Source: a virus. Taken from it: DNA of 64,000 nucleotides. Location: the IMG/VR virus record IMGVR_UViG_3300035698_007036, positions 1 to 64,000 of that record; one strand, given 5' to 3'. The translations under genes were made by a program, and so were the position numbers. This document shows positions 1,639 to 56,400 of this stretch, piece by piece. The notes beneath the pieces are model-generated. The model was not told the DNA's origin. It was given only the letters and a program-made list of their open reading frames with translations, and did not search any database. Numbering within the stretch: the stretch's first letter is position 1; each line of letters opens with the position of its first letter.

Positions 1639-1647
1639 GAGAACAAT

Positions 1648-2133: not shown

Positions 2134-2173
2134 TGGTAAGAGTATTAAAAAATTTAAGGAGGATTTAAGAATT

Positions 2174-2398: not shown

Positions 2399-2487
2399 CC
2401 AAGTATTTGGTTGCCCGCCATAACAATGACCAACTGACTTTAAAAACATCAGGTTCCTAGTCAGTGAGCCGTAAAAAGGAGGAAGTT

Positions 2488-3243: not shown

Positions 3244-3283
3244 ACAACAAATGGTGGGCAGCCATTTATTAAGGGGATTTAGA

Positions 3284-10815: not shown

Positions 10816-10832
10816 CCTGCTTATTATATAGA
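10813..10832 (+). promoter_or_regulatory. Candidate phage late promoter TAAC-N10-TATAGA
   Basis: TAACCTGCTTATTATATAGA, nearly identical to 28454-28473; overlaps the terL stop codon. Confidence 0.45.
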
Positions 10833-28448: not shown

Positions 28449-28453
28449 TTAAC

Positions 28454-28473
28454 TAACCTCGTTATTATATAGA
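28454..28473 (+). promoter_or_regulatory. Candidate phage late promoter TAAC-N10-TATAGA
   Basis: TAACCTCGTTATTATATAGA, 150 nt upstream of the tail tube gene. Confidence 0.5.
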
Positions 28474-32422: not shown

Positions 32423-32488
32423 GTTAGGAATCAGGATTAGGGTTTAAAAAAGAAGTGAGTATTTACGATACTTTTGGAGGTGCTGGCT

Positions 32489-35400
32489 TTGGGAGAAACT
32501 TATGATGTTAATTTAAAAACCACCGTTGATAGATCTAGTGGGGCGGGAAGTAAATCCGCAGGCATTTCCCCTAATGATGTTAAAGAATTCATCAAAGCAA
32601 CAAAAGACAATGAGAAGGCTACAAAACGCTTACCTAAAGATATAGCGTTAGCCATAGCTCCAATTTTGAAAGGGGCTTTTAAACAGCAAGGTGTTAGTAA
32701 GGATTCGTCTGGACAATCAATAGACGCTCTTGCTACTAAACTAGCCTCACAAATAGGTAGACAGCTCGCCAAACAGTTGGCTATTCATGCCAAAGCTCCA
32801 GCAGTAACCCAAAAAGCCACAGCCACGTCTAACAAATCTGACAAAAATACTAAAGCCTTAAAAGACAGTATAGACAAACAGACTACCAAGATAGTTAGTG
32901 CTATTTTGAAAGGCATTTCTGCGACGTCAGGCAAACAAAAATCAATTATATCTCCGGATTTTGGTAAACAGATAGCCACTGAAGTAGCCAATGCTGTAAG
33001 AAAAGTTATGGCTAGCAATGTTAGTCAGGCCAAAGAGTCAATTGACTCCGGTAAATTGGCCAACGTTATCTCTAAGCGGGTGTCTTCTGCTATAGACAAG
33101 ACCAGCCTGAAAAACACTGAGCCAGCTAAACTGATTAAGTTTTTAGCAGGCCAAGGACAAAACGGAAAAGACATTGTAAAAGTTTTAGAAGCTTTACAAA
33201 TGGAGATAAAAAGACAGAGCAAAGCCGGAAGTCTTCAAATGCCCAAAGAATTAGTTACAGGAATAAACCAGATAAAAACGGCTTTAGACAAAGTAGCTAA
33301 TCAAAAAACAACTGAACAAGATGGTAAGTCAGCTAAGGAGATAACCAAAGCAGCTGGCGACCTCGCTAAAGCTGTAGATAAGTTAACTTCTGTGGTAGGT
33401 GCTTTAGAGAGTACCGCTAAGAAAGCCAGTGCTGCCAATAGATCTGTTGACAAGATGGCAACTGGCTTAGCCAATTCAGGACAAACAGTGGGTAGGGTAG
33501 TTAAACCTATAAAGCAAAAGATAGAGGCTAAAATAGATAAGATAAATGATACCGAACTTAGAAGAAGTTTTAAAGCCCTTTTATCAGATGTAGAGAAAAC
33601 CATAGCTGCTAGCTACAAGTTAAAGATAACTCCTGAGATAGAAAAACTTATTAATCTTAAGAAAGAACTTGAAGCTAAAATTAGAAATATAGGAATTAGA
33701 TCTAAGGTGCCTGTTGAGGTAGAAGTAGATACCGTTAGTATGGACAAGCAACTAAAAAAGACGGAATCCAATGTTTTAAAGTTCAAGAAAAAAATAGAGA
33801 ATATAGAAATAGAAGGTCCTACAATTAACTTTAAAGCCGCCGCTTCTCCTAAAGGCGACTTCTCTGAGGTGTTAAAAAGAGTAGAGAAACGAATAGCGGA
33901 ATTTACTAAGCAAGAAGAAAAAGAGATAGTTGTTAAGATAGACCAGCAGAAGGGCTCTGTGAAAGGTTTCCAGGTCCAAGTAGAGAGTCTAAATAGGGTT
34001 TTGGATGAACTCAACAAAAAAGCTCAAGGCTCATCCCCTCTGAGTGGCTTTGAAGCTAATGATATAAATGCTGTAGCTAAGAAGATAGATGATCTGACTA
34101 CTAAAATGAGAAATGCAACGCTAGAATCAGCAAGATTGCAGGCTGAGTTAGCTGATATACAGTTAGACCCCATTACCAAAAGTGACGCTGAAAAAATAGT
34201 TAAGCCTTTAGTCGATGCGTTTAACCAAATAGAGGTCCTTTCTAAAAAGATAACCGGCAGTTTAGGTAAGGATGTACAGACTAGTTTTAAAGATGTAAAG
34301 ATCCGTTACAGTGAGGGTAATATAAAAGAAGCTCAGACTTCTGCTAAAGTGTTGAGTAAAGATCTCGGTGCCATAGGTCCGACGGCTCAGCAGGTTAAAT
34401 CTCTCGTAGATGATCTCGATAAGACTCTTGGGGCAGCGGTAAAGGGAGCATCAGAGCGGTATATTAAAGGTGCTAATTCTGTAGAGAAAGTAATGTATGT
34501 TCTTACAGATGCTATAATGGACTATGCTGGAAGTGTAAAATCAGCTCCTGATTTAAACAAGTCGGCCGATAGGCTGGTTAGAAGTATTGAAGATGCGGCA
34601 GATAAATTTGTAAGTTTAGGTAAGCAGGCTGCAGAGGCAATGAAGTATGTTGATAAATTTGAAATGCCACGTTATAATACAGGTGCTGGTAGATCTACTG
34701 ACCTAACAGCCCAAACAGCTAAACGCTTTCCTCCAATAGGTTCTGAAAAGATAAGAGCTAAAGAACTTATAAAATATACACAGACCACAATAAAACCACA
34801 TTATGAAGGTATACAGTCTGCTGGAACGCCAGGAATGGCTAGCGACAAGTCACAGTCAATGGTTGAACAAAGAGTAAGGGAGCTATCTAATTCCTTGGCA
34901 AAGCTTCAAGAAGATATGCTTAAAAATTTGGATAGAAACCTCGAGGGCACTTTTGCTAAATGGAAGGTAGTTAAGGATCCTGGACAGACTTCGAAAGACT
35001 ACGAAAAGATATTTAAGGTAACTGGTGGGGCCAACGCCAAAACTGCTGGAAAAGAATGGGCAGTTCAAATAGCCTCAGCCAAGAATCTTAGAGAGGCCAT
35101 AATAGATGCAAGTAAGGGCCTTAAGACATATAGTACTTCACTAGAACAGCAAGTTAGAAGAATGCCAGTTAAAAAACTTGTCAAATTATATGAGGACAGC
35201 CTTGTTGATTTGGAAGTTTTGGCCACACAAGGTAAGCCTGATGTTAGAAGGCAAAAAGTTGCCTCTTGGATACGCTCTACACCTAATGTGGAGTCTAAAG
35301 ATTGGAACCTGGACGATGATGAGAAGACTAAATTTAAGGAGATAAGAAAAACAGTATCAAGAAAGACTGGGCTTAAGGGTTCCGATATTTTAAAGGAAAT

Positions 35401-38400
35401 AGAAAAAAGCCTAAAGGGTTATGGTGATGACTCATTAGCTGAGCTTTACAAAAAGACATATGCTAGATCAGAAGCTCAAAGATCTATACAGGAGGGTTAT
35501 AAAAAGAAAGGTGCTGGTGGTGTAACTGTAACAGAGCCATTAGTACGTACTTTGGCCGTTCCGGCAGCTAAAATGGATATACAGGGCAATATAACTTTTG
35601 AGACCGCTTCTGGTGCTAAAAGAGGTGTGGCTGAATTTGCTACCTTTAGGTCTGGATTTGAAAAGATGTATGAAAAGCTTCAGTCAAAAGGTGGATCAGG
35701 TTACGATATAGCTGGAGAGTACGATAAACAAGTACGTTCTTTTGCTGTAAAAGTTCCAGCAGGTATGAACAGTCAAGCCAAAGAAACGGCTAAGAAGATG
35801 ATACTGGATCTAGCTTCCAAGGGAGGACCAGAAGATTTTTCCTTTATTATAGAGCAGTATAACGATGCTATAGTAAATAAGGGGGTTAAGCTCAGAAAAT
35901 CTAATGTCATAACGAGTGATGAGGAACTAACCAAGTTTGTTACTGAAAAGTCTTCCAGCATTAATAATAGCTTTAAGGACAACCCCATGGCTTTGGCAAA
36001 GAACATAGAAAACGTAATAGATGACTATGATAGGGCCGGAGTGACCGCACTAGACTTCGTAAGATCCATGGACAGTATAGATTTTGAGAATGTGTACGAC
36101 GTATATGATAAAGTTCTAAACGGACTTACTGTCGGTTTACAGCCATTGGAGAACTTAGCCAAGAATCCTAATTATTCAAGTAATATCAGGGACTACGAAA
36201 AAGCAATACGTCAGGTAGAGCAGTTAATGCCCGTTGTTGAACCAGGCCGTCCACGTAGAGGTGCCTACCAGGCAGGAGTAACTCATGTAACTTCAAGAAC
36301 TTCTGATGTATTTAGTGGAGAATCCCGTCTTACCCCAGAAGATCAAAAGAAACATATTACGGATATTAATTTAAGAGCCAAAGAGATGATGGAAGAAGCT
36401 AAAACACTTAGAAAATTAAGTGAAAAGATGCCTGAAACTTTTAAAGAGAGAAAGGGTCAGCCTCCATCTAGAATTAAAACTCTGACTTCATTAGGTCTTC
36501 CAGAATCTACCATTTCTGCTATTCTAGAAAGAGGTAAAGCAAGGGGCGGAGATACTAATGACTTCTCAAAAGGTACAGATTACTTAAAAGCTTTGGGTGG
36601 TACAACCGTTCAAATGCAGACCCAGCCCATACATGCTATGGCCCCTTTTGGGATGCAGGCAGGGCATAGAGGTAGAGCAGGTATGGGTTCTATAACCCGC
36701 AGTATGTCATTTGATAGAGAGATAAATAAGACTATATCTGACTTAAAGGGCACCCCTGTAAAGGGTACAGTTACTGATTTTCCAGCTGTGAGAACTACCG
36801 AAGAGCAGGAGTTAATAGCCGGAGGAAGATATGGTAGAAGTGGTTATGGTTTTAATGCGGCTACAGAATTTAAATCAGTAGCCGGTACTCATGAGGATAC
36901 TATTCAGGTAGCAGGTAAGATTGCTGATGCTTTAACTAGTAGAATAAAGACTGTTATGTTTCCAGCTTCTGGCGGACGCTTGGGCAGTCCAGGAGCTGCT
37001 GGTGAAAGGGAATCTTACGTAGGGGATATAACCCCTAAAATGATAAGCGACACTTCCTCAGAAATAGTTAAAGTTTTGGGAATGTCAAAAAACTATGAGG
37101 GTAGGGCTGATCAAGCTTTAATAGAAGAAGTTAATAAAACAGTTAGTGTAGTAAGAGGTGAGAATGTAGAAGTGCAGGCAGCAAAGATTGCTGAAGTATT
37201 TTTAAATCACTTTGGAAGAAAATTTATGACACGGTCTGGTACCAAAGGTGTTGGTATAACACCTACAAATCTAAATGAGAAGGATGCTAAATTTCAACTT
37301 AAAGTCGGTAAGAAAAAAGGCCTTGGTGTTTATGAAGATCCAAAGTCTATGGGTGAATTAGCGTCAGTAATAATGCTTAAAAATAGAAAAGAACTTGAAA
37401 GTAGTTTTTTCAACAAAGTTGGTGCTGGTCAAGGTCCCAAAGACAGTAAGGAAATTAGATCCGAATTCGAGAAAACCAGAAAAGCTATTTTAGATTCTGG
37501 TAATAAATTTATGATAGAGGCCTTAAGAAACAAGGACCTTGGGGTAGCCACTGAGGGCGAGGCTAACACTAACCAAGCCTTATTTACTACGTTTAAAGAC
37601 ATGATGGCTAGCCCAGCTATTAATCAGCAGTTTACTGGTAATAGTGTTGCTGATATATCTAAACTTAAAGACTTTTATATGAAGACTGGTGGAGACAAAG
37701 CAAGTTTAACTAAAATGAAACCGATAGAGGTTAGAATAAATTCCTCAAGTGTTGGTAGAAGAGGGTTACAGTCTGAAGTACTGGAAGCCGTCTTAGGCAA
37801 CGTAGTAGGAAAAGCCAAGCACGGATCCACAGTAATTGAATCAGATATACCTAATGAACAATACCAGAACTTACTGACCGGTGGTAAAGATCAAAGTGGC
37901 CAATACAAATCCGGCACGTTAAGTAAATATTCCAAAGCCTTGGGCTATAAAAAAGCTCTTGATAGTACCAAAGACCTTGAATCTGAAATATCTGACATAT
38001 ACGGAGTCGATGGTTTAGGCAGGAAAGTTTCTGAGGAGGCCTCTACTTTAAGTGAGTTAGCGTCGTCTGGAGCAGGTTCTAAGGTTTTAGGAGAACAACG
38101 AGCAGCCGTTGAGAAGGCTAAAACAGCCTTAGACGAGGCCGAAGCTAAAGTAGCCGAGGCTATGAACCTAGAAGAGACTTCTAACTTCTATTCCAATGTT
38201 ATTGACGAGTTTGGTAAGAAGCGAAGAGGCCTCATTTCTACACAACATTTTATTCAGATAGCTGAAGAACCAGGTGAGCAGCAAGATTGGAAAGCTGGAC
38301 AAGTCAAAGATCTTAAGAAAGGAATAAAGCTAAACCAGTTAGCTTACTCCGCATACGGTACTATTTTTGGCGAGCAATCAGCGGTAATTGATGAGATAAG

Positions 38401-41400
38401 GGAAAACCTTACTGATGCGTCTCAACAAAATTGGGAATATATAAAAGCGTTACAGTACATGAGCAACGATCAATCCGATGCCACTGACAAATATAAAGCA
38501 AGTTTAGAAAACGCACTCAAGAGTACTGGCAAGCAGGTAAAGTTAGGTGATCTTAAATCTTTTACCAGGTCTACAGGTACACTTACAGGAAAAAGAGACG
38601 ATCCTTCAAGCCTTAAAAATACTATAATGGATCATGAGAAATATTCTACACCTTTCTTAGTAGAGATACCAAAAACTAATTCACCAATAGATAAATTAGG
38701 TAAAGAGTTTGAAGATTTTTATGTACCAGGTCCACAAGCCAGAAGTGTTTATCCAGAGAATTTAGTAGCAGGCGAATATGGTATTGATAAAGTATCTAGA
38801 AGGATACAGCATGTAATAAACTCAGCTAAACAAGTAGAAGATTTTTCTAAAGACCCTATGGGGTCTATAGATCAAAATGAATTTATAAATATGGTAAGGC
38901 AGAACTTGTTCGAGCTTGAGCAACAGGCTATGGGATTTGAAAGAACTATCAATCCTCAAAATGCCCAGTTCAACATAGGTGAACTACAGGGTATGTTTAG
39001 TAAGCTAAGCACACTCCTATCAAATGATGCCGCCATACCAGTTTCTAAAGGCTTTAAACCAGAAGCGTTTAAAAATGTAAAGATGACTGAACAAGAAACA
39101 ATGCAACGTTTTATTGTTGAAAGAATGAAAGAAGTTGATCGAGGAGATACTTACAACTCTGGTATAAATAAAGGACAAATAAAGACCATACAGGGGGCTT
39201 ATGTAGAGTCCATAAAAAGGCTAGTTGATATGTACGTAGGAGTTTCTCCAGAGGTTAAGCAAGGATATTACAAAGCCGAAGACGTTAAGATGTTAATAGC
39301 TAACGATGATCTAACATCTCCATTAATTGAAGCTATGATGAAAGGTGAACCAGAAGGCATTGTAGAAGGCCTTGGGACACAAGCTAAGTACTTTAAATCA
39401 AATAATGTAGGCCAATTAAAAGAAAGAGTAGACAAATATCTTAATTGGCATGGCGAAAAGGTTAATGCTTATCCGGCTATAAATAGACGTCTGGGCGATC
39501 AAGTTGAACCTAAAAAGAAAAAAGAGGAAATGAAAGTCATTGCTGGCACCTTAGGAATAGGGGATAAGCTTAAGAAGGAGACCCTTCTTAAGAGAGCCGG
39601 TACATTAGAGAAAGCTAAAGTAGACTATCAAAATGAATTAGCTCAAATGACTTTAGGTAAAAAGGGTGCCGTACAAGAGACTTTGTTTACCAGGAGAATT
39701 CCTGCGGCCTATGGTAAGGCTGTAGCCGCAACTGTTGATAGAACAGAAGAAATGAAAACGTTTCTAGTGGAGATGGATTCTATTTATGATGAATTGTCAA
39801 CAGCTACTCGACTCAATGATGTTGTAACTCCCAATAAAGCTACTGAACTTGCCAAGACTATAGATTCTGCTCAGAAAGAGCTTGAAGACATAAGAGTACG
39901 ACATGTTGAAAGGGTAGATAAAGCAAGACAAGGTTCTAATTTACCTGTTCTAAAACAAAACGAGCTTATGATACCTGAAGCTTCTGCTAGGTTGTTGCCT
40001 GCACAGTTCCCCAAACCATATAAATTTGGAAAAATGGGATCAGTTACTGAAGACAAGGGAACATCAGAAACTGGTAAGAACTTTGATGAGTTAATCAAGT
40101 ATAGAAATAGATTAGAGAGCTATATAGCTAAGAATCCAGGTTCTGATATAGTAAAAGGAATGAATGAATTTATGGAGAAAGAACTAATTCCTTACGTGGA
40201 GAGTGTTCGTTTTCCATTCACTGGTATATCATCAGTACTTCCTTCCAAAGGACGTGTAACAAAGAAGGGTGATTTTAGAGGTATAGGGGATCAGACTGTA
40301 ATAGTACCAGGTGCTCCGGAAATGTCACCAGAAGATTTTAGTAATTTTCAAAAGCAAATAGAAAAAATACAAACAGTAAGAGGATCATTGTCCAAAACTA
40401 GAGAAGGCCTCTTGTCTAAACCTGGTGGTTCCCCTCAGTCTCCAGAAGTCAAAAGTTTAACCACCACTATTAACAGGTTAGATAAGGCTATAGATGACGT
40501 CATTCCTAAATACTTAGCCCATCAACAGAAGCTTGATTTCGACGGTGACTCTCTATTCGTACATACAGCAAAGCTGAAGGAAGCCAGAGCAGAAATTAAG
40601 CAACATTATGAGACTGTAATACAAACACCTAGTAAAGACGGTATGCCTGCCAGTTTTCTAGCATCCCACAGCGGAAAATTTGCTTCTGACGCTATCGAGC
40701 CCTTTGTGCAAAATGCTGTTTTAGCCGATATGAAGATGGGTTTTGATAAGAAGCAAGGAGGCAAAGGTGAAGAATTCCTTAGAACTCCAACTTTTTCTGA
40801 AGACCTTAGCTACATATCTACTGAGAAACAATTAGACTTTCTTAAAACCCGTATGGGTGACTACGGTGACATAATAAGAGAAGCCCTCGATGCTGTACAG
40901 GCTCCAGAAGGTTTGTCCACTGAGATTTTAAAATCAGTAAGAGAAATTTCCGGAAAAGACGGTGTTACGTCTGGTGATGTACTTACAGCTATACAGGGGA
41001 TTACATCTAATAAGCCAGCATCAGCAGATGCTTATGTTAAAGCCGGTTTAGAGAAACGTACAGGAGAAGAAAAGTATAAGGATTTCATTAGTGCTCAAAC
41101 TTATAAAATACATACAGGACCTGAAGTAGAGTCCTTAACTAGAATGCAGAGAGTTATAGAGACATATGCCGGATTTGGCAAAGAGGGCCTTATAGGTAAG
41201 GGCTCTGAGTCTAGGGCACGCCCTGAATTTGAGGAACGCTGGCCATCAGATATGCCTGGTTTATTTGGACCAAGGGGTGGAGTACAAGAATTTAATACCA
41301 TGTTAAATGAAATGTCTCGTTTTGGTCAGCAGGCTGGTATGGACGTTAAGCACGCTGGTGCCAACCCAGTAATACAAGAGATAGTGAGTCTTTTGACAAA

Positions 41401-44400
41401 GGGTGGTAAAGAGGCTGACAAACCTTACGGCGGTGTTGATGAGCTGTTAGATAAAGTTTCTTCAGGTGATAAAACCTTAGGTGGTCTACAAGACATACAA
41501 GATGCTATAAATGATGCGGTTGATAAAAGAGTAGGTGTGTTAAGCACAAAACAGCTAAGGGGCCAACTTTCTAAGCTTGTGACACAGCGTGGTGATGACC
41601 CTTCAGCCATAGGTGAGATGGATAGGCCTGAGCTTATAAGTACAGTTAAGAAGCAAGTAGGCTTAGAACCTTTTTTCAAGGATATGGCAGACATAATTTA
41701 CAAAGAGGCCCTGTCTGGTATACAGCAACAGTTGGCTAATATGACCCCTGAAGCCCATGATAAGACCACAACAGGTTTCAAAGGCACAGACGAGCAATTT
41801 GCCAAAGACACTCTTGCCCAAGAGATGCGTGGTGGTGGTATAAACATTGCTAAACATATTACTAAAGCCCTTCATCCTTTATATACATATAGAACTAGCG
41901 GTGCCAATTTAGGATCAGAACAGCAAAAAGCTGTACAAAGAGTTGGCGGCGTTAATAGTCCTGACTTACAACCTGGTAAGTTAAGTGAAGATAGATTTAA
42001 TAGTATGAGAAAGAAAGCCATCCAATCCCAGTCTGTAACTGCTAATTTAAGCAGGGATTTACAGACTGCTGTCCAATATGCAGAGAGGGGAACTTATTCT
42101 GAGTTGGTATATAGTGGTCTAGAGTCTCTACATAAACAATCCAAAGATGTAAAAAAGGCTGCCTCGACTTTTGATGATTATAAACCTACCCTAGGTGCTG
42201 TAGGAGATGCTGGGGCTGCTGCCGAGCTAGCTAAGTACGGAACTTTGATGAATGACTTTACGGATGCCCAGTTAACGTCATCTAGCGTTCTGACCGGTGA
42301 AATGGCTGAAAGTATAAAGGGTATAATAACTACAGGACCTACGGATATAACCAAAAGTAAAGATTTAAATAATATGAGAGACGAGATAGAGAGGCTCTCG
42401 AAGTTAGCAGGAGTTCCAAGACTAAGTGATGTTTCTGAAAATGAAATAGATAATTTAACTGGAATATTTGGAGAATTTGTAGATAAAAATGCATCGCCTG
42501 ACATAAAAAACGATGAGGCACAAAAGACAAAGCTTGTAAATAATCTTAAAGAAAAGACTAAAGCACTTCACCAGTTACAAAAAGTTATAGATGCTTTAAG
42601 AGTTAGGGCTGTAGAATCAGAAGCTATCTTAAATTTGATACCTTCTAATGTAGACATTGGTGGGGTAATGGTAGGGGCTAAGTCTTTTGATAGACCAGGT
42701 CCGGAGACCATAAAGGACGAGGGTGGGAATGTTGTAATAAAAAAAGCATATGAAAGAGGAATCATAGGAACAAGTGCTCCAATAGATACTGATATGTTAG
42801 ACCAGGGACAATTTAGATCATCAACAAGTTCTCCTCAATTCTATAGTAATCGCGGCCCAGGTACACCAGGTGGTGGAGTCCCAGGTGAGTGTGTTCGTGT
42901 AACCAATTGTGACGGTCCTCTAGACGTCAGGGTGGTTGATATAGCTTCAGGAGTCAATATAGGGACTTTGGCGTCTGCCTCAGAAAGAGTTGGGGCAACT
43001 CTGCAAGATAAGATGGCGTCTAATAGAATAGCCACTGAACAATTTGTACAGGATTTGAGAAAAAACGCCTCCGACTTAAGTGGAGGAAAAGACGAACCTT
43101 GGACTCACGACAAATATGTAGAGGAAACTCAAGGTAGATATACAACCCAACAAGCCTACAGGGCTAGTGGTCTGGCTGGCGGAACTTTAGAAGATAAATC
43201 TGAATCCCTTTCAGCACAGCAGGCTCAGGTAATAAAAATAATTAAAGAGATGACAGGTGTACATCAGGCGAGAGGTATTAGTGAGATAAATGATACTCCT
43301 AATGAGCCAACGGGCGGTATAGCTGACGCTAAGTATGCTGCAAGAACTGAACTTGGTACACTACTACATTTAAAAGAGCAGAAACAGTTAGTTAAAGATT
43401 ATGGAGATAGGGCAGTAATAGAGAAAACTCTTAAAGTCAATCCGAATACTTCTGACAGTGGTATTAAAGAGGGTCTGACAGGCTCTATGCTTTCTAACTA
43501 TATTTCAGGGCATGTTGACGCCATACTTAAGAAAGAGGGTGCTGGCGGTGGGATAGGTGAAATAGATAAGTTTTCTGATATTGAGTCTGTAATAGATTTT
43601 AAAACCTCTGGCCAGAATTTTATGGACGCTTTAAATTCAGCCGGTTTTAAAGATACTCCTGAGTATACACCAGAAAAAATGAAGGCTTTATCTGATATAC
43701 CTAATGGTGAATTCTATGTAGAAAAATTAGAGAATGCTCGTCATCAGGTTAACGTCTATCTTGAAGGATTACGTCAGATGCTAGGCGGAACTGTTGAAGA
43801 TTTTGAGAATGTAACCGGTGAACTATCGTTTATTAATAACATGGATTCAGGAGACAGAATTAAAGTCAAGTTCAAATTTGACGAGCAGGCCTTCGAAAAT
43901 GATATGGCTGCTGTTAGAAAAGCAAGAGAATTGATAAGTGAGTATTTAGCTAATGCTGACAAAACATTAACCCCATCACAGCTACATACCAAGCCTGAAG
44001 ACATAAAATATCAGGGTGCGTTAAGATCAGCAGTTGGTTCTGGAAAAGTAGGCAAGTTTGCTTTTAAGGGGGCAGCATCTCCAGAATATTTAAGAAATGC
44101 TGAAGAAGAGAACATGGTTAGACAGAAATCAGGCTTCTCTATGGTTGGCGATGCAGATTTAAACAGAAATATAAGAAATGCCCAGTCGTTTATCACTGGT
44201 GATTTAAAACCAAAAGCCCACGGAGCTGCTATGGAAGCCTCCACTATGGCAGAGAGAGCCCGTGAGGAGACTAGAAAATCTGGTATAGACCAGACTAGAA
44301 GTGTTCGTATGCAAGCCGACAAGTACGGTGATCAAGGAGCTTTAGGGAATATAGATGATGAATTTTCCCGTGCCCAAAGAGGCCCTACTAATCAAAGAGG

Positions 44401-47400
44401 AGTTTCAGCCGTTTTCGTTGCCCTTAAAGCTATGCATGAACAAGCCATATTAGCTCAACAAGACGAAGGAATAGATTTTGAGATGGACGTCTCTAAATTG
44501 CCAGAGTCACTTGGTGGCCTTATAGATAAGGTGTCGCAAGTGGGCCCAGATTTTGGTGAGTATGTCTCAAAGGTCAACGAGCTTATAGATACTGGTGAAT
44601 TAAAACAATATGAGATAAACAAGTCTTATAAAATATATAGAATAGCTATGGGAAATTTCTATATTAAAAGAGCTGAAGCTGCTAAGAAGCAGATGGAAGA
44701 GCTTTACACTCAAGAAAAGAACACTGGGGAGCCAGCAGGTTCAAAGCAAGCTTATGATAGGTATAGAGCTATAGTAGAGGGTCTTCAGAAAAGGATCCAA
44801 GGTACTATAGGACAAAGAACAGACATTTATACTAAAGATAGAAGGTACTTTAGTCCTCAGTTAGCTAAAGAAGCTGGGACATACCTTACTCCAAAAGACA
44901 TTATGGATAAGTCTTCAGGACCTTTGGGCAGTAATGACAAACTTAAAGGTATGTTTGAAAGCATAATATTTGACATAGATAAGAAAGGTAGTAAGGGGAT
45001 AGATAAGGGAAGAAATATGGCCCGTTCCCCTGTAGAAAAAGTAAGAGAAGCCTTCAAAATGATGAGTAAACCTAAAGACAAAGAAGGTAAGGAATTAGAT
45101 ATAGATCTAGTCTCTCTTTTAAGAGACGGGGAAAGAATGAAAAGAGTAGGATCGGATCTTAAAGAAGATTGGGATTTTGCTGGGGTAGTAGATAATATAT
45201 CTAGGCTCAGAGCAGCCCTACAGATGTTTGTAAAGAACAACATAAGTGAAGATTTTAAGATTAATGAGCAACAGAATTTAAATGAGGTCATAAAACTTCT
45301 TAAGACTTTAGAAAACAATTATGTGAAGTTTGGTAAGAGTATAGGTAAGAGTAAAAAAGAATGGGGCGATATGGGGCTGGTCAAGGTACCGCCAATTCTT
45401 GCCCCTGTAGATCAAGAGTCTATGCATGAGAGAAATCTACAGCAAACTCGTAAATATTTTAAAAGAACAGAAGGTGAAGGTGGTGCTAAAATAGGCGAGC
45501 GTTTTACTTATCCAGTTAAAGTACTTGGCGAAGCTGGTCAGCAAATAAAAAATCAACAAATACATTTTTATAAATACGGTGAAGCTATAGATTATGCTGG
45601 TGATAAGCTTGGTCTATTTAAAGAAAAACAAGAAGATGTAATGAAGTTTATACAAGGTGGCAATAGGACTATGGGCTCTGCCATTATGCGTGCTGTTAGA
45701 TGGGGTGCAGCTTCTTCTATAGTGTATGGCGGATGGCAGAAGGTAATGGACTCCATAGATATGATGTCCGACGTTGAGACAGAGATAGCACAATTGAGAA
45801 TGGTGATGAGTCCACTTGAAACTGATTTTGATGCTATGGGCAAGTCCGCGTTTGGTTTCGCTAAACAATATGGAGTGCCTGTTAAAAGTGTTCTAAAATC
45901 TATGAAGGTGTTCGCTCAACAGGGTTTGAGTCAATCAGATGTTATTGAAAGAACACAGACTTCTACATTAGCATCAAATGTTACTACTCTTGAGGCTAAG
46001 GATGCTACTGAAGCTTTAACTGCCACTATGAAAGTCTTTAGAAATGAGATAGGCTCTTCTGCTCATGCCCTTGACGCTTGGAGTGAGGTTGAAGCTAAAC
46101 ACGCTATTACTGCTGGTGATATGGCTGATGCTATTAAGAAATCAGCATCGGCTGGTAAGAACGCTGGTTTTACGTTTGATCAGTTAAATGGTATTATCGC
46201 TTCTATAGGTTCTACCACAAGACAGACTGGTAAAGAGGTAGGCACCTCCCTAAGATTTATATTCAGACGTCTAGCCTCTGAAAAAGGACCTAAAGAGTTA
46301 GCAAAATTAGGCATCCCAGTACTTGAAAATTCTGGAGAATTGAGGAAAGGTTTTGACATACTAGATGATCTATCTTCTCAATGGGACGGGTTAACCAGAG
46401 CTCAGAAAATGAATGTTGCTCAAGCAGTCGGTGGTACTAGACAGTATAACCAACTACTTGTTTTAATGGATAATTGGGACGAAGCTCTGTCAGCTATAGA
46501 GGATAGTACTAACTCTAAGGGGTCGGCTGAGAGAAGAAACCTTGAGTTAATGAAGACTTACAGTAAGCAGGTTGAACAGGTTAAAGCAGCAGCATCCGAA
46601 GCAGGTGTTTCTTTGGGCAAATTAGTATTACCTACATTTAAAGCCGGGCTTACTGGCCTCAAGGGTTTTTTAGAATTTGTTAACAATATACCATCAGGTA
46701 TAAAATTGACCACCGCTGCTTTATCTGGCCTAATAATTTACTTTGCCAAGGGTGCTGATGCTATACAAGGGTTTCTTGAATACTTTAGAGGCGGTAAATC
46801 CATTATATCAGACTTCGGACGCTCCCTTTCAGACGAATGGAAGTTAACTCAATCTGAGGTTTTTGGTTCTGGGGAATTTGCCAGCTATGACGCCACTCTA
46901 AATGTAAAGAAGGTCAAAGTAAAAGATTTAATAGACTTTAAATCCATGGGCAATATCGATCCTGAGTCTACAAAGGATTTACTGGGGTCTAACATGGGAG
47001 ACTTTCATTCCTCAGTAGGTAAGTCTCTGTTCCTTTTGAAATCAGTTGCTACGGAATACAACAAGTGGTTAGCTGAAAGCTTTAAAGATACCAGTGATAC
47101 TGCTGATAAATATTTAGGAAAACCATTACAAAGAGCCGGACAAGTTGCTGATAAAGCCGGTCGTTCCCTGATCTCATCAGGACTTAAGTCCATTGATAAG
47201 GGTGGTACATTTGGTGCAATAACTGGTGCTGCTACAGGGGCATTGGGTGCAGGAGCTTCTGCTATAGGCAAGTCGTCCGAATTTGCTGGCGAGTTAGAAC
47301 AGACAATAACAAAGAAATTTGGTAGGCCCGCTGGTAGAATGTTCAATGAGATGGCCCAAAATTCTAAGGGGTTTTTAAGTGTAATAACGCCGTTAGCTGT

Positions 47401-50400
47401 CTCTTTGACAGCTGCCGGTGGTGCTGCTTACGTAATGTATAAACACTATAAAAATCTAGCAATGTCAGCACAAGATTATGAGAAGTCTATTTACGGTATA
47501 AGAAGGGCTAATGAGAGTGAATTAAAGACCGTAAAAAGTAGGATCAATGAGTATTCTAAACTTGAGAGGTCTATAGAGAAAGCATCACAGGTTACCGCTC
47601 CAGGAGTTAAAAAGAAGAGACAAGGGTTAGAAACTTATGAAAGTCCTCTAACAACTATGGCTGGAGTAATTTCTGATGTTAGGGATTTCTCTAATAGGTT
47701 AGGAGATACCAATACAGAATTAGTAGCAGGATATGATAAATTTGGTAATGCTGTAATAAGAACTTCTAACAATTTAAAAGAATATCTTAAAGTCCTAGAA
47801 TCCACTGCCCGTAAGGACATGGCCAAGGTGGAGATAGATGTAGCAGCCAGATTTGTCACCGATCTTACGAAGACTGGCGGCACTGAAAAATGGAAAGAGG
47901 AACTTAAAGCCCTTGCTTCTGAAATTCCAGTAATTGGTGAAATGGTGGCAAGTGGTATAAGTGTAGGTCCAGCTAAAGCATTAGAAACCATAACTGGTAA
48001 ACTGAATGACCTTATAGTACTTAAGAATAAATTTCCTATGTCCAATGCTTTCGATAAGGACATTAAGAAATACCAAGAGCAATTGTCTAAAGTAAGATCC
48101 TCCTTTAGTGCTACTTACGAAGACTTTAAAAGAGTTCTTGCTGGGATATCTACGGAAGGCATGTCTCGTGATGATGTATCTAAAATATTCAGTTCCCCTG
48201 AAATTCGCAAGGGTTACGAGCTAATGATAGACATTGAACCGAGATTCCAATTAAACGCTGTCAAGGGTAAAATAAAACCAGAAGATATAATAGGTTCTGA
48301 TGTACTAAGTAGAACTCTTAACTTCGATTTTGATGTAACTAAGGAACTTACTAAGGCCCGTCTAGAATCATCCTCTGTAATGCAGAGAGAGGGTAAAGCG
48401 TTGTCCGGGGACATATTACTCTTTATGGACGATGTAGCTAGTAAATACAATATGGCAGGAAGCCAAGCACAGATTTCACTTAAGGAAACAACCGATGGGG
48501 TTTTTGAATGGTTTGTTACATACTTCAATACTAAAACATTACGTGTAGAAGAACGCCCATTTGAAGGTGCCATGATGGATATGGTTGAAAACATTTTTCC
48601 TAAAAATAAAATTGAAGATGAACTTAGTGAAAGAATAGATTCTCTTAATGAATTTATGGCAGGGGCGTCTGCTGGATTAAGAGGTGTTAATCCAAAAGAT
48701 TTTAAGAAGGATTTTAATTTAGGTGAGCGTTTCTTCAGTGAGGTTCCTACCACTACACTAATCCAATCCGACAAAGGCTTTACGCCAGGCGAAGGGTTTG
48801 GAGTCTCAGATTTCCAAAAAGATTGGCAGAAGTCTGCACAGGACTATTTCTTTACTCCAATGAAAGATTATAAAAATCAAGTAGAAGAACTTCAGAAGCT
48901 GAAATTAAGCGGCCTCGAAGAGGCTGGGTCAGTTAGCTTATCTAAAGAGCTATATGAAAATCTAACCAGTTTACAAAATGTTCTAAAGAACAATCAAGTA
49001 GTTTTACAGTACAGAGCTGTCTTTGCTGACCTTACTAAAACTATGGAGGCAGGGACACGTGCTCTTAAAGAAGAATTAGCAGTAGAGAAAAGTCGTCAGC
49101 AGATAAGTAAAGATACAGCCGGTTATATGAAAGGTATATCATCAGGCCTTGACAATATGGATTTGGGGTCTCAGAAGTATTCAGATTTATCCGATAAACA
49201 ACGTGCTTTAAGAAGTTCAGGTACTTATAGGGATTTGGCCTCCAGAGCTAGTGAGATCAATATAGAAAGACAGCAAACCGAAAAGGGTGTGTACGATACT
49301 GATCGTGCTTTAGTGGCGTTAGATAGTATCTCAGACGTTTCTAAAGGCTTTGGTGCGTCTATGACTGCCGAGGAGATGAAAAAATATGTCGATATTATAG
49401 CCAAGACAGATGATGCTGGGGCACAGTCTATTGCTATAGAAACCAGTAAGGTTGTAGACAATACCGCTGCTACGGTGGAGAGATTAGATAAGCTTATAGA
49501 AAATCAAGGTGGCGGAAGATCTACAGAAGACACCATAAAGAAAGCAATACCTTTCTTTACAGCTTCTTTTGATGATAATGACAACATTGCAAATACCATG
49601 GAAAATTTAGCCGAAATGCGAGATAGTGCAGCTGCTAAGGGTAATACAGCAGATGTTGTGTCCGCTAATAGGGCTTTAGATGTAGTGACAAAAGAATTAG
49701 TAGACAAAGTAGGATACGAAAAAGCTGGAAAAACTGTTAAAGGTGGAATACTTCCCTCGATATGGGATCCTATAAAGCAATTTAAACCAGAGGAATTTTC
49801 ACAGAGAGCTTTTGGTGGCATGTCCTTCGATGATTTTTCTACTCAAATTAAATCAGGTATGACAGAAGACCAAGCCAAGGTGTTTGATAATAGTAAAGCA
49901 GTTAAAGAGTTAGTATCTTTACAGGCTACTGCTGGAACAGAACCACTTATAGACTCTAAGAATTGGATTAAAACTACTGCTGCTCTAGGTGTTGGAGCTC
50001 AAGGATTTAAGAGCTACGCCACAAAAGAGTTAGAACAACTCAGAACACAGAAAACTGAGACTGTTAATGCCATCGAGACTAGATCTGCTGAAGGTAAAGA
50101 CGTGGCCCAATTTGAAGAAAAACTTACAACGCTAAACGATAAGATAGGTGGAGCTGAAAAACGAGAAGATTACTCTAATTTAGTAAAGAATACTGCTATT
50201 GTTTCTGCTGCCATAATGGAGCTCTCTAAAGCTACTGGTAGTACAGAAGGTACCATACAGACCCTAGGAGCTAGTGCAGTTGCTGCTGCTGTTGCCATGA
50301 AATCTTTATCAGCAATTACTGGTACTGATATGCCAGCGGAAATTAAAGCATCCGCTGATAAAATGGCAACAGCTGGAAAAGGTTTTATAGATAAAAACAG

Positions 50401-53400
50401 TGCCACACCAGTAGAAAAAGTTGAGTTCATGGTCAATAGTAAGAAGTTTATGGATGCTTTTAAGAAAGAAATGGAAACTCAAGGCTTCAACGTCAACGCA
50501 TCCCAATTTCCAGGATTTGCCGATGGCGGTGTTATGACCGGTAGTGGTATGGTCACAGGCCCTGGAGGCCCTACTGACGATAGAGTTCCTTATGTCAGAG
50601 CAGGTAAACATGTAGGAAATCTTTCGCCTAAAGAGTTTGTAATAAAAGAGGCATCAGCCAGAGGTAAGTATGCGGAGCTAAATCATCTTAATAAAACTGG
50701 CGAGTTTCCTGATAAGAAAAATAGTATGTGGGATAATATAAAGGAACGTCCCATTAGTTCAGCATTACTAGGCCTTAGCGGCTTGTCCGGTATGGCCGGT
50801 AATATGCTTAAGAATCCGGCATTATTGTTAGCCGGTATGGGAGGCATTGCCTCAGGTACTGCCGCCGCCGCTCTAGGTTACGCCGAAGGCGGTTCTCTTG
50901 ATGATGCCTTGTTTGACACTCAGTTTAAATTACGTGCTTTAAAAAAGAGTGTTCCTCATAGACTTAAGGGTTTAGGTGTTGATCCTTTAAACAGAGGCAA
51001 GGCCACTATGAAGAGTTTGGCTCTAGATGACAAATTATCTAATGCCTTATTTGACGCTCAGTCCAAAGCAAGAGGTCTTAAGTCCAGTATGCCTCATAGA
51101 TTAAAAGGGACAGGGCGTGAAGCTTTAGGCAGAAGTAAGTCAGCCATAGAGACTTTTAGACGTGGTTCTGATAAAATCCCGAACACTATGTTTGATGCCC
51201 AGTTCAAAGCAAGAGGCCTTAAGTCCAGTATACCGCACAAACTGAAAGGCATGGGTCTTGATGCCATGGCCAAGGCAGGCCAGTTTGGGGACAAAATCTC
51301 GGATGCCATGTTTGATGCCCAGTTCAAAGCAAGAGGCCTTAAGTCCAGTATACCGCACAAACTGAAAGGCATGGGTCTTGATGCCATGGCCAAGGCAGGC
51401 CAGTTTGGGGACAAAATCTCGGATACCATGTTTGATGCCCAGTTCAAAGCAAGAGGCCTTAAGTCCAGTATACCTTACGGTCTAAAAGGATTAGGTCGTG
51501 ATGCCTTAGGTCGAGGCAAATCAGCCGTAGAAGCCCTTAAATATGGGCCAACAGGTGAGAAGATTTCCGGGGCCTTGTTCGACGCCCGGTCAAAGGCTAG
51601 AGGTCTTAGTAAAGCCATGCCTCATAAGTTCAAAGGTCTAGGTGTAGACGCTCTTAAAGGTATAGCTAGCAAAGGGGCTGGTAAATTAGCTAAAGGATTC
51701 GGCATTAAAGCCGGATTGAAGTTGGCAGCTTCAGTAGGTTCTAAGTTTATTCCAGGCTTGAATGTGCTATCTTGGGGGGCTACTATATATGACGTAGTAA
51801 AAATGATGTCTAAAGCTAAGCCAGCGGTAGCTGCGGCAAAAGGATTGTCTCTCGGGGGATCTCCTGATAGTATAATGGCTATGGTCAGCCCCGGAGAGTG
51901 GATAGTTCCGGCTGACAAGGTTAGAGGTAATTTGTCCAAGTTAAAGCAATTAAATAAGACAGGTATGTTACCAGGATATGCTGACGGGGGCCTTGTCGGA
52001 GGTAATACTTCACCTGATGCCCCATCGTCATCTACCGAGCCTTCTACTATTAAAGTAGATTTAAGCGATAGTAGTTTAAAAGTCTTAAGAACAGCTGTAG
52101 GTGCTGGAGCCGCTGCTACAGGTGCCGGTTATTTAGCTAGTAAATCCGAAGCAAAAACTAGATTGGCTACCGCATCAAAAGAAGCGGAAGAGCAGTCAAG
52201 AGTGTTTGCTAAAGTAATAGAGGATAATAGTGAAGCGGCCCAAGGGGTAATAGATGGCATGAGAACTACCTCTGTTGAATCTAACAGGATAATTAACCCT
52301 GTTCCAACAGAAGAGCGATCTCGCGTTCTAGACACCGGGGCTGAGAAAGAAAAAGTAGCCTCTGATATGAAAAAGATCAGAGATCGTATAGTTAAAGAGC
52401 ATGAAAGACTTAATGATGAGATGGCTGAAATAGCCAAAGAAGCTTCAAAAATAGAAATAGCAGAACAATTTAAAAGAGAGAAAGAAAATTTAGACAGGAC
52501 TTTAAAAGAGATAGACCTTACTAGTGGTATAAGAGCAAATTTAGAGAAAGCTACCTATCAACAAGACCCCACTAGCTTTTTTTCACCACCTAAAAAATCG
52601 GATCTATTAAGCGGTTTTTACAGGCCTCAAACTACAGACTTTGGTGTAACGAGAGAGTCTGAGATGACTCCGGAACAATCTATGGTTTATAGAGAGATAT
52701 CATTGTTTCCCGGTAAGATGCGATCATTTTTTGAGGCCATTTCAGTAGGTGATAGCTCTATACAGAAAAAAATAAGGGCGTACGCTGGAGTGTCTGCCGG
52801 AGATGCTTTTAAGAAGCTTGATGATCTAAAAAATAAGAGACAACAAGTAAGTGATGTATCGACTGATGTTCAGAAGAGAAAAGCAGAACTGGAATCTAGG
52901 AAATCAGACGGACTTTCTAGTGCCGAGTCTGAAGAACTTGACAAGTTAAATGATTCTGCCGAAGAGTTACAAGATACTTTTACGGATCTTACTGGTGAAA
53001 TAGGTACTTTACAGGCCACTATAAAGAAAGCCATAACTACAGAAACCATAAGACTGGCAAATAGATCGACTGCCAGAGAGGATTTGGCCAGAGAAGGAAA
53101 ATTTGCTGATCGTAAATATGGGAGAACTGGGGCTGTTACAAAAGCAACTACAGGTTTTCCTGGAGAAGTATCAACTTCCCAGAGCTACAAAGAGTTGTCC
53201 GTTATGCAGCAGGTTTATTTAGACATGAGCAACAAGCAAAAGAAGGGCTATGATGCTTTCTATAGAGGTCTTGAAGAGATAGGTCATATGGAGTCCAATT
53301 TAGCTAATGCTCAAGGAGAAAAAGTAAAAGCCATAGAAGAAGGGGATACGGATGCTGTAGCTAAATACGGTGCACAAATATCAGACTTGAAAAATAAAAT

Positions 53401-56400
53401 GTCGAATGCTAGAGACGTTACACAGGAATACGGTAACGCTTTAAGGAAAATAGTTGATGTAAAAAATGTCATTAGGGAACTTAGTTCAGCTTTGGATCAG
53501 TTAAAGGTTTCCGATGCTATAAGAAATTTTCCAGGTACGAGAGAAATGAATGATAAATACTCTAAGCTTTATGGTGGTGGCCATCCAGGAGCTCGTACAG
53601 ATGTATCAGCCATGGAACAAAGAAATGCTGCTGAAGTAGGTATCAATTTAGAACATCTTAAATCTACACAGTATGAAAAACAATTAGCAGCTATTCTTCA
53701 TGATTTGAGCTCTGGCAATTTGTCTGGTGAGGCCTATAATCAAAAAGTAATGGAAGCCATGGATATTGTTACGACTAAGCCAGGTAGAGATGAGTCCAGT
53801 ATTAGACAGCGAGAAGAGAATGATGCCCTTAATAAGCAGAAGGATGTTTTCGTCAATTTAGTTTCAGCTTTAGAAAGATTGAAGCAATCTGGCCGATTTT
53901 CTGAAGGTGAGGTATATAATTTTAGCAAGGGTCAAGCTGCATTGACAGGTGTGATTACCAGGGCTGCTACCCCAGTAACTAAAGATGAGAGAATGACACA
54001 TGTTGAGAAGCAATATAATTGGTGGGAAAAGATACCTCTTTTTAGGGACCAATATATGGCCGATAGAAAAATTACAGAAGATGGTGGAGATAATCAGTAC
54101 ATAGGATACACTCAAAAAGATATGAAAGAAACGCAAGGACGCCTACAAGATGCCATGAAAGAAGTTCCAACCATGGATGTTATGCAAGCACGTGCTGGAA
54201 ATTCAGAGATTGTAGACGAACTTAAAAAGCAAACTACTTTAATGGAGAAAAAAGTTTTTGAAGAAAAACATAGTCTCATTAATAGTCTTTTGGGTTCATT
54301 GACTGTTGGTACACAGAAAAAAAGAGAAGGAGGCCGCATCTTTGGTGCTGGAGGTCCTACTGACGACAAGGTTCCTGCTTACTTAAGTCCTGGAGAGTAT
54401 GTAGTTAAAGCTAGTTCTGCTAAAAAGTTAGGCTACGCCACACTAGAAAACATAAATAGTACTGGGGATGTTCCTAAATTTGCAGAAGGTGGCTCTCCAG
54501 AGGAAAAACTTGCGGACAAAATTAAGCGTGCAAGAGCAGCCGAAAAAGAAAAGGCTCTTCCTTGGAATCAAAAAGGTAATGATAAAATTAAAGAGATTTA
54601 TACATTACCTATAAAAGATGAATCGGTTGTAGGTCTCGAAAGACTATTTTCTTCAGGGTTATCAAGCATCTATGAAACTTCCGCAAATGGGACCAAACTT
54701 GATCCTTATTTACCGGCTGGAATAACTCATGAGGAAGTCACTAATAGACAGACTTTTGAGGCTAATAGAGCAGTGGTGACAAAATTTACTAAAGCTGAAG
54801 ATGACAGACGACAATATGCGAAAAGAGCTAAAAATAAGAATAATATTGAGGATTGGAGAGATACTATCGAGCGTAGAATTCCAGGTGAATTGGCTGTATC
54901 TAACAAATTTTTAGATATACCTAGTGCTGGTTATGGCCAGTTTGGGGTAACAAAGGACCGTATTGGTACAGAAGTACAGATGCTTATTGATTATCAGAGA
55001 CAATTAGAAAAACTTAAAGAAAATAAAGATACTCTTGACAACGCTATAAAAAATAAATATGGCAAAGATGCTGGATTGGATCTCTCCACCAAGTTGTGGG
55101 GAGGTATTGATTCCAAAACTGAGGAACCTGTACCTGGTACTATAGCAGAACAAACAGCACGAATTGCTGTTGCGTTGAAGGGCTTTAAAGATGGCAATAT
55201 GGATTTTACTGATAAGGTTAATAGAAATTTGTTACAATCCATTGTAGAAACACAAAAACAAAATATAGCCCCAGCTGCCAAGTTTATGGATTCAGTTTCA
55301 AAGGGTAATAAATATAAAGACGTGTTTGGTGTCAATAAATGGAAAACATACGCGACCGTAAATCCGGCCCGTTTTAATGAAATAGATAAATTATTGGCCG
55401 AAGGGCACATTGACGAGGCAAAAAAAGAATTTGAAGTCTGGCAAAAAAAGTTTGAGAAAAATGGAGGGCCAAGTGCTGATGATATATCTAGTAAGTATTC
55501 CAAGAGAAATTATATAGGGGAGGACGAAGGGCAAGCTATACTTGATAGGATGAAAGAGATTGGGGGTTTAACCGGAGATCCTGAGAGCTACGGTAGAGAA
55601 AAATATGGACTTCGTAGAGTAGAGCCTAAGAAAAAGAAATCCTTATTTGATTTATTCGATCAACAATTTGTAGGGGCTCCGACATCTTCTAGAGTTTTTC
55701 ATGCTGGCGGTATTATGCCGTTTACGGGTAATGCGTTTTTACAGAAAGGCGAGGTAGTAATACCACAATCGTTTGGCGACGGTGGCCCTGTGGCATCTAG
55801 TGTTAAAGCTCTAATGTCTAGAGATTCTAATGAGCTTAAAGGCACTGCCACTGTCAAAATAGACGCCTCAGATTTCCAGAGAGCTGTTGATGATCTTACT
55901 TCCCATAAAATGGAATTAAGTAGGACTGAGGTTACAGTAAATACAGAAGGAGTCAAAATACCAGTCGATGCGGAAGGCATCACTGTAAAAGTTGATACTA
56001 CGGATGCTAGGGTAAAGGTTGACACTGAAGGTGCTTTTGTTAAGGTAGACACTACTGGTGCTATGGTAGGGGTTGATACTTCAGGGGAGAAAGTTGGTGT
56101 AGACACTACTGGTGCTATGGTAGGGGTTGATACTACCGGTGTGTTAGTTGGTGTTGATACTACCAATGCTACAATTAAAGTTGACACGACAGGTATTAGT
56201 GTCCCAGTAAATACCTCCGGTTCGAAGGTAGCGTTAGATGTTTCTGGTATTCAGGAAGCTGTTGAGACCGCTTTAAGAAACGCTAATGGGTCAAGTTCTG
56301 TTGGTGCTGAGGAAGTAGCTAGAGTGGCTGAAGCACTAGCTGATATCACTAATAGACTAGATTCTAAAATAGCCAATTTAGAAAACGATATGAGTAATGT

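Follow-up and report, generated by a model that had tools for sequence, protein, structure and literature searches.

How much of a cellular-type RNA polymerase (RNAP) can be carried within the tail tape-measure protein of a phage, and can such an enzyme keep its clamp? The question is raised by a locus in the IMG/VR record IMGVR_UViG_3300035698_007036, of which positions 1–64,000 were analysed (this stretch of 64,000 nt is referred to as the window; the whole record has 119,536 nt and is 41% complete according to CheckV). A fusion of tape measure and RNAP is already known from one paper, on gp96 of Thermus phage P23-45 (Chaban et al. 2024, PMC10770324). In its available text gp96 is described as flat and clampless, as a first-pass annotation of the window had stated, and the authors proposed that this flatness allows passage through the tail channel.

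The element in question is a single open reading frame (ORF) of 8048 aa (32474..56620, + strand, as are all features given below; TTG start as listed), a tape-measure protein with an internal RNAP-like module. The frame is uninterrupted, which was also confirmed in the whole record, and every string quoted by the first-pass annotation lies in it where that annotation had placed it. Judged from its sequence, the ORF is a phage tail tape-measure protein: it lies downstream of genes matching the terminase large subunit, portal and major head protein, it contains the tape-measure core domain PF10145 (PhageMin_Tail, TP901-type; aa 4458–4654, 45845..46435) at E 3.3e-26 and 92.8 bits, exceeding the gathering score of 33.2, and PHROG tape-measure families match its second half (best 3e-70). 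The polymerase module is internal (aa ~1200–3250 of 8048, with DFDGD at aa 2688). We regard it as likely that the stretch singled out by the first-pass annotation is the β′-like half of a complete single-chain two-barrel RNAP embedded in the tape-measure protein of a large phage. Along the chain, a β-type barrel and C-terminal segment would be followed by β′ clamp-core motifs and a long helical connector, the catalytic barrel (QKLDFDGD), the bridge helix, the trigger loop, a helical C-terminal region and then another ~4800 residues, the tape-measure core among them.

Catalytic barrel, bridge helix and trigger loop

The β′-type catalytic barrel, a double-psi β-barrel (DPBB-A, aa ~2395–2700, 39656..40573) with helical insertions, was delimited by conservation, PF00623 (RNA_pol_Rpb1_2) and hhalign, and carries the motifs LGKKG..F.R.IP (from aa 2394), LPVLKQ, ESVRFPFTG (from aa 2576), VPGAPE and QKLDFDGD. 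KLDFDGD occupies aa 2686–2692 and DFDGD aa 2688–2692 (nt 40535–40549); D2688, D2690 and D2692 are invariant in all 32 family members aligned, as are R2579 and P2581. LGKKG..F.R.IP pairs with GKQGRFRQNLLGKRV of Escherichia coli β′, ESVRFPFTG with NRAPTLHRLG and QKLDFDGD..(V)H with NADFDGDQMAVH; LPVLKQ.E (from aa 2491) was not paired with E. coli β′ by hhalign.

When the family alignment (A2) was compared by hhalign with a two-sequence β′/A′ template, four matches were obtained that follow the same order along both proteins: A2 21–92 with β′ 240–309 (E 0.11), 325–350 with 322–347 (E 0.33), 519–553 with 424–455 (E 0.16) and 627–653 with 458–484 (E 7.8e-4). PF00623 matches 19 of the 32 family members at E ≤ 1 (best E 4.6e-5), and in a genome-scale scan the window matches it over nt 40529–40603 with 14.3 bits and E 0.003, below the cut-off of 25.3; the gathering scores of RNA_pol_Rpb1_2 and Rpb2_6 are not reached by the window's module.

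An AlphaFold2 model of aa 2060–3250, made with 32 sequences (mean predicted local distance difference test score, pLDDT, 77.8; predicted template-modelling score 0.65), has strands flanking the DFDGD loop, and DPBB designs and Cdc48-N are among its fold matches. In a Foldseek search of the PDB, 45 of the best 50 matches listed are largest subunits of multisubunit RNAPs, with Pol I A190 as the best (E 1.9e-3; none at E ≤ 1e-3, and TM-scores of ~0.1), and in a wide fold search 11 of the best 50 matches listed are largest RNAP subunits. Half-subunit matches, specific to the N-terminal part, pair plastid rpoC1 104–534 with model 1–684 and archaeal A′ 70–828 with model 1–837. Structure prediction, which the first-pass annotation had named as a check, thus ranks cellular-type largest subunits first; gp96 (8H2M/8H2N), P23-45 gp64 (8F72), QDE-1 (2J7N) and φ14:2 gp66 (6VR4) are not among the matches listed in the three fold searches. 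The codes of these single-subunit enzymes are those in the data statement of PMC10770324.

The bridge helix is predicted as a 49-residue helix (aa 2851–2899, 41024..41170; model helix 792–840), in the C-terminal half of which lies AQTYKIHTGPEVESLTRMQRV (aa 2874–2894, nt 41093–41155). K2878, G2882 and E2886 are invariant in 32/32, T2881 is found in 31/32 and R2890 in 29/32, and the archaeal A′ structural alignment ends here, at model 837 against A′ 828–830. The bridge helix proposed by the first-pass annotation is upheld by the long helix and its invariant K, G and E; its residue-by-residue pairing with β′ needs a gap and is tentative. The trigger loop (aa 2936–2975, 41279..41398, with QQAGMDVKHAG) is modelled as a helix (877–897), a flexible loop (899–904, pLDDT <50) and a second helix (907–916). 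In GQQAGMDVKHAG (aa 2951–2962), G2951-x-Q-x-x-M-x-x-x-H2960-x-G aligns ungapped with G927, Q929, M932, H936 and G938 of E. coli β′, which agrees with the trigger loop originally proposed. No variation is seen at the Q, G, D, K and G, the His is present in 30/32 and the Met position holds M, L, I or F in 32/32; G.Q..M...H.G occurs once in the protein, compared with 0.0005 matches per shuffle, for a pattern chosen after the match was seen. According to the available text of PMC10770324, bridge helix and trigger loop are found conserved in each of the two-barrel RNAPs compared there, and they therefore do not set the family apart from gp96.

Two departures from cellular β′ had also been reported at the active site and its surroundings. 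No β′ zinc-finger Cys cluster can be present, since the whole 8048-aa protein has only two cysteines (3473 and 3479), both outside the polymerase module. The NA of NADFDGD is indeed replaced by KL, the window reading QKLDFDGD; in the family the residue before L-DFDGD is K in 30/32 and N in 2/32, and the following L is found in 32/32. R2579 (in SVRFPFTG) is aligned to β′ R425, which together with N458 we take to read the ribose. The Asn is thus lost, as the first-pass annotation said, but its suggestion that discrimination between NTPs and dNTPs may be altered is weak, because the R425 equivalent is invariant and gp96, which reads GVDFDGD and likewise lacks NA, extends RNA with rNTPs (available text of PMC10770324). 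Altered sugar selectivity is possible; nothing here indicates it.

The β-like half and a stand-alone paralogue

The β-like module (aa ~1207–1975, 36092..38398) holds the second barrel (DPBB-B) and was recognised from its motifs and by hhalign through a paralogue. The motifs are PF..R (aa 1391–1401), HEDTIQVAG (aa 1473–1481), GRKFMTRSGTKGV (aa 1581–1593), GRRGLQSE (aa 1761–1768) and FIQIAEEP (aa ~1927–1934). Through the paralogue, APFG....HRGR pairs with PFLEHDDANR of E. coli β, HEDTIQVAG with NFEDSILVSE, GRKFMTRSGTKGV with GDKMAGRHGNKGV (β 1064–1078), FIQIAEEP with YMLKLNHLVDDK and KLNQLAYSAYGTIFGE with QRFGEMEVWALEAYGA, and IEVRINSSSVGRRGLQSEVLE maps onto a 20-residue segment. R518, K519, R523, G525, K527 and G528 of GRKFMTRSGTKGV (A3 numbering) are invariant in 31/31 sequences of the β-part family, so that a second barrel with the basic residues of β G.K...R.G.KG appears to be present. 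The distance between the FED and GRK motifs is ~95 aa, compared with ~245 including the flap in E. coli, in a stretch modelled with low confidence. The barrel carries two large insertions; a coiled-coil hairpin inserted in the barrel region (aa 1826–1906, 37949..38191) was identified from fold matches, all of them helical hairpins.

The paralogue comes from relatives of the window's phage. Five large related records (189–269 kb, 72–100% complete) were examined. The giant fused gene is present once in each, and three of them (G005, G006 and G007; loci L075, L073 and L074) also have a stand-alone ORF of 1088–1180 aa with no tape measure attached, in which HGNKGVIR, LDFDGDV and 16–18 Cys occur. 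It matches Pfam Rpb1_2 at E 1e-5 to 1.9e-4 (26.3, 24.5 and 22.1 bits, one of the three above the cut-off of 25.3) and Rpb2_6 at E 5e-4 to 4e-3. In hhalign comparisons this ORF is paired with the window's β-like alignment with a probability of 98.5% (E 2.1e-15, 581 columns, window aa 1207–2120) and with a three-sequence β template with a probability of 80% (E 1.3e-5, β 1031–1293). The paralogue has the same β-then-β′ order and the same Y.P...R clamp-core motif as the window's module, but is compact, with 160 aa from Y.P to DFDGD compared with 603. This stand-alone RNAP is the link, at the level of sequence, between the window's module and cellular β.

The "seamless β–β′ fusion" of the first-pass annotation holds because the paralogue ties the module to β and the β′ clamp-core motif follows in the same chain, although the β′ N-terminus is much reduced (the N-terminal 240 residues of E. 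coli β′ are mostly missing), the space for the flap is short and the β barrel has its two large insertions. The β′ elements had been placed directly after the β C-terminal motif; this is loose, as the last β-like motif ends at ~aa 1975, ~107 residues before FYVPG. As far as sequence can tell, the tape-measure protein contains a complete single-chain β-then-β′ two-barrel RNAP with an apparently intact active site.

Candidate clamp-forming elements

In single-chain enzymes three parts make up the clamp: the connector between the barrels, the helix or loop following the catalytic barrel, and the C-terminal region (available text of PMC10770324). All three clamp-forming parts appear to exist in the window's protein, because a clamp-core motif with the first helix, a helical connector and a C-terminal region are found. 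The β′ clamp-core/lid-proximal motif and the start of the first clamp helix (FYVPGPQARSV...IDKVSRRIQHVIN, 38717..38821) were identified by hhalign and by the starts of structural alignments. The conserved pattern is E.FYVPG..AR..Y......G.....RR.Q.VIN (aa 2080–2116), in which Y24, P26, R31, Y34, G41 and R50 (A2) are at least 90% conserved; hhalign aligns the motif with β′ TVLPVLPPDLRPL...DLNDLYRRVINRNN and aa 2080–2151 with β′ 240–309. Structural alignments by VIA-align start at model 23, opposite Rpb1 241, and at model 45–50, opposite Rpb1 259–263, positions which we take to be the lid-proximal motif and the first clamp helix. Two of the three strings originally proposed as clamp elements, FYVPGPQARSV (aa 2082–2092, nt 38717–38749) and IDKVSRRIQHVIN (aa 2104–2116, ending at nt 38821), are borne out by the profile alignment and these starting points. 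The third, SIKRLVDMYVG (aa 2246–2256, nt 39209–39241), is not supported, as hhalign puts β′ 298–309 at aa 2139–2151, ~95 residues upstream.

The all-helical connector (aa ~2117–2394, 38822..39655; model helices within 47–334, pLDDT of 47–91 by block) is a candidate for the clamp body, and after its first helical hairpin it is for the most part specific to the lineage, with weak conservation. Lid motif and GKxG lie 310 aa apart in the window's protein, compared with 88 in E. coli β′ and 141–323 for the family as a whole. The candidate third element is the helical C-terminal region (aa ~2976–3235, 41399..42178; block pLDDT mostly 71–93), ~270 aa that follow the trigger loop. VIA-align alignments run to model 1155–1158, opposite β′ 1355–1356, Rpb1 1431–1434 and Tth β′ 1470–1471, and so end within the C-terminal conserved region. 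From the motifs and these alignment end points, connector and C-terminal region probably form a clamp-like domain, which would put the lineage, in structure, nearer to cellular RNAP than to gp96 with its flat, clampless form.

The same connector can be read differently: the polymerase would be real, but the connector would be a lineage-specific helical insertion, perhaps a tail-tube packing or tape-measure-like extension, and the enzyme would be as open as gp96. The connector is the least conserved part of the module (column identity 0.09–0.33 over aa 2118–2357), varies in length across the family as given above and falls to pLDDT 47–64 in places; the third proposed clamp match fails, and the catalytic barrel has other helical insertions too. 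We nevertheless find this explanation less likely, as the clamp-core motif and first helix are conserved at the very start of the connector and the alignments to β′/Rpb1 begin in the clamp core and finish in the C-terminal conserved region, a region that is well predicted and conserved here and has no counterpart in gp96 as described in the available text of PMC10770324.

A family of giant tape-measure polymerases

Standard searches with the window's own protein return little for the polymerase module. Nothing significant was found for aa 1–4000 in Pfam or PHROGs, for aa 1501–3300 in the PDB by sequence, for the family profile in the PDB, or for aa 1401–3200 by tblastn against 50,697 phage records; the ESM Atlas gave scores of ≤0.81 and no named family for aa 1400–2120, and a BFVD fold search a single unnamed match at E 8.7e-4, the rest being noise. 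A word-indexed search found 51 homologues of 5023–7923 aa with 26–38% identity to the window over the module. PF10145 and D.DGD are present in 51/51, and their public annotation is merely "tape measure protein". In IMG/VR there are 44 loci, of which 39 are family members and five are distant.

An exhaustive profile search of 1.84 billion representatives with the core (aa 2377–2984, alignment A4) returned 106 proteins at E ≤ 1e-3, 77 of them at E ≤ 1e-30. The matches are mostly proteins of 6.5–8 kaa or pieces of such proteins, together with a few of 4–5.5 kaa that match in the catalytic barrel only, and no cellular-β′-like protein was matched at significance. A search of the open literature found no description of the family, which the supplementary survey tables of PMC10770324 may list.

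One of the shorter proteins, P0127 (4651 aa), is matched in the catalytic barrel only (E 4.7e-11) and has PF10145 at aa 2531–2725, suggesting that yet another lineage of tape-measure-fused RNAPs exists at a greater distance. Additional enzyme domains (precomputed Pfam) are found in P0042, P0044, P0047 and P0051, three of which have an exonuclease (PF00929) and one a set of helix-hairpin-helix and polymerase-X-type domains. In the related giant gene at L015, a stretch of 2847 codons is open apart from two in-frame stops, both TAG (positions 1975–1977 and 2992–2994), one of them just ahead of the catalytic barrel. This suggests that TAG is read through or recoded in that phage, or that the gene is split. 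A 1158-aa frame in a metagenome-assembled genome (MAG) labelled Woesearchaeota (G002:C9:5932–7488; L054, L058) has weak matches to Rpb2_6 (32.3 bits) and Rpb1_2 (21.1 bits) and represents a further single-chain RNAP with two barrels that has no relation to the query contig. A host was sought through three family matches on contigs of 16–25 kb in MAGs labelled Gammaproteobacteria, Woesearchaeota and Fermentibacteria; since these labels are mutually inconsistent they look like binning artefacts, and no host is assigned.

Cysteine is avoided throughout the family, with 0–4 per homologue (n = 51), and there is none in the 5002 residues of gp96 or the 616 of gp64. This near-absence would fit a protein that crosses the tail and the cell envelope unfolded and then refolds.

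Proposed origin and mode of action

By analogy with P23-45, the fused protein would be present in the virion and ejected with the tape measure at infection, and its polymerase would transcribe the first phage genes as the DNA enters, as for gp96. The Cys-containing stand-alone paralogue, made in the cell, would then take over where it is present.

There is about an even chance, or a slightly better one, that the fusion arose independently of that in gp96. A fuller proposal is that the family is a second, independently assembled class, in which a near-complete cellular-type β–β′ enzyme of ~2000 residues with a clamp is held in a 7–8-kaa tail protein of 190–270-kb phages and has a compact paralogue as its partner; we give this somewhat less than an even chance. 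The first-pass annotation had spoken of a more cellular-like lineage, and this stands as far as the β′-type clamp-core motifs, the fold ranking and the restriction of the gp96 signal to DFDGD are concerned, but not in respect of the Pfam cut-offs, the zinc sites and the NA, where the module falls short of cellular β′.

It is less probable, though worth serious thought, that all of these proteins descend from the same ancient tape-measure–polymerase fusion as gp96 and that the two lineages then grew too dissimilar to be recognised as kin, clamp, N-terminal extension and PF10145-type core being lost at a later stage in the Thermus phages. Both systems share the rare architecture of a polymerase upstream of a tape measure in one polypeptide, both are cysteine-free or nearly so, and in both a stand-alone paralogue accompanies the fused enzyme, as reported for the P23-45 lineage in the available text of PMC10770324. 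The paralogue found here matches the gp96 catalytic barrel (E 1.7e-5, 73 columns), and the distant P0127 also carries PF10145, so that such fusions span a wide divergence. On the other side, there is no profile signal to gp96 beyond DFDGD: with gp96 as a single-sequence template, hhalign detects only this region (probability 1.2–4.9%; E 0.008 for the β′ part) and gives no signal for the window's β part. The Pfam content of the tape measures differs, the polymerase is internal here (from ~aa 1200) and N-terminal in gp96 (aa 327–1124), and the paralogue gave an hhalign signal to β/β′ where gp96 and gp64, again as single-sequence templates, gave none.

Several observations weigh against a complete two-barrel enzyme with a clamp. 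The β half is the more exposed: a model of aa 1065–2130 has a pLDDT of 68.4 and values <50 across the barrel motifs, three fold searches with this low-confidence model found no β fold and only the coiled-coil hairpin, and Pfam Rpb2 families match none of the 31 β-part sequences at E ≤ 1. In the β′ half, the window's own sequence has no Pfam family at E ≤ 1 in the family scan, both zinc sites of cellular β′ are absent, and the direct hhalign matches to β/β′ are individually weak (E 0.055–0.33, the DFDGD match at 7.8e-4 excepted) and were obtained with thin templates of two or three sequences. The stand-alone paralogue, on which the link to β depends, was not found in the 41%-complete window record or in two of the five relatives. 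Finally, closure of the clamp parts over the cleft is putative, and the presence of the polymerase in the virion and its activity are proposed by analogy with the P23-45 system.

That the module is instead a degenerate, catalytically dead relic with a structural role in the tape measure, as its missing Pfam match and the loss of the zinc sites and of NA might suggest, is very improbable, given that sequences of only 25–38% identity retain, with few or no exceptions, the Asp triad, the β-type Lys/Arg, the R425 equivalent and the trigger-loop Q/H, and that gp96 is active despite similar losses (available text of PMC10770324).

Other features of the window

A scan of the window for direct repeats, made to find promoter-like sites for a virion polymerase, yielded no convincing intergenic motif in multiple copies. 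A 27-nt sequence, AATTAA.TAACCT..TTATTATATAGA, occurs at 10806–10832 and 28447–28473 with 89% identity, in intergenic gaps of the structural module, and may be a regulatory site. In the tape-measure part of the giant ORF, four tandem copies of 120 nt (51029–51529, 61–95% identity to the reference copy) code for 40-aa repeats (…DAMFDAQFKARGLKSSIPHKLKG…), and two or more copies of the motif GGPTDD(R/K)VP…SPGE(F/Y)V (50562–50590 and 54348–54376) lie in the protein's C-terminal third.

Significance

A family of ~100 proteins with a larger β–β′-like module and clamp-forming parts makes the idea that flatness allows passage testable, and raises the question of how a polymerase of ~230 kDa would be stored in, and delivered through, a tail. 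It offers a natural single-chain, zinc-free and cysteine-free relative of cellular RNAP, and through its compact paralogue the phage enzymes are connected in sequence to cellular β. If there is indeed a second class of such fusions, clamplessness would not be what lets a polymerase travel with the tape measure; the enzyme would have to travel through the tail tube in an unfolded state and regain its fold in the host, in keeping with the near-absence of cysteine, and the relay of two polymerases seen in P23-45 would have arisen at least twice.

Comparison with known systems

The nearest known system is P23-45 gp96, which shares with the window's protein a two-barrel RNAP with DFDGD that precedes a giant tape measure on the same chain, a bridge helix, an N-terminal trigger loop, the lack of NA before DFDGD and the (near-)absence of cysteine. 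What differs is the size, the position in the protein, the clamp elements, the similarity to cellular β/β′ and the type of tape measure. The RNAP lies at aa 327–1124 of 5002 in gp96 and at ~1200–3250 of 8048 in the window; where gp96 has, in the available text of Chaban et al. 2024 (PMC10770324), a disordered connector of 67 aa and no C-terminal region, the window has 310 aa from lid to GKxG and a C-terminal region of ~270 aa. The tape measure of gp96 has Peptidase_M23 and no PF10145, that of the window PF10145 and no M23, and gp96 comes from a thermophile and an 84-kb genome, whereas the window's family is from phage genomes of ~190–270 kb in metagenomes. The "Moraphage" lineage (PMC12619734) is a different one: it has contractile tails, its available text reports neither an RNAP nor a tape measure, and no link was established.

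Other enzymes with both barrels in one polypeptide, as in the window's module, are the phage and RNAi polymerases crAss-like φ14:2 gp66, QDE-1 and YonO, and φ14:2 gp66, too, belongs to a giant virion protein according to the available text of PMC10770324. With E. coli and other cellular β subunits the module shares, in the same order, PF..R, FEDS, GDK..RHGNKGV, PSRMN.GQ and VG..Y..KL.H, and with cellular β′ LPV.PP..RP and the first clamp helix, GK.GR.R, NR.P.LH, DFDGD..VH, the bridge helix and the trigger loop Q..M...H.G. It differs from cellular RNAP in being one chain instead of two, in having KL for NA and large helical insertions in both barrels, and in the distance from DFDGD to the trigger-loop His, which is 272 aa in the window and 476 in E. 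coli; cellular β/β′ subunits of the Rpb2/Rpb1 type are nevertheless the best fold matches of the window's model among the matches listed.

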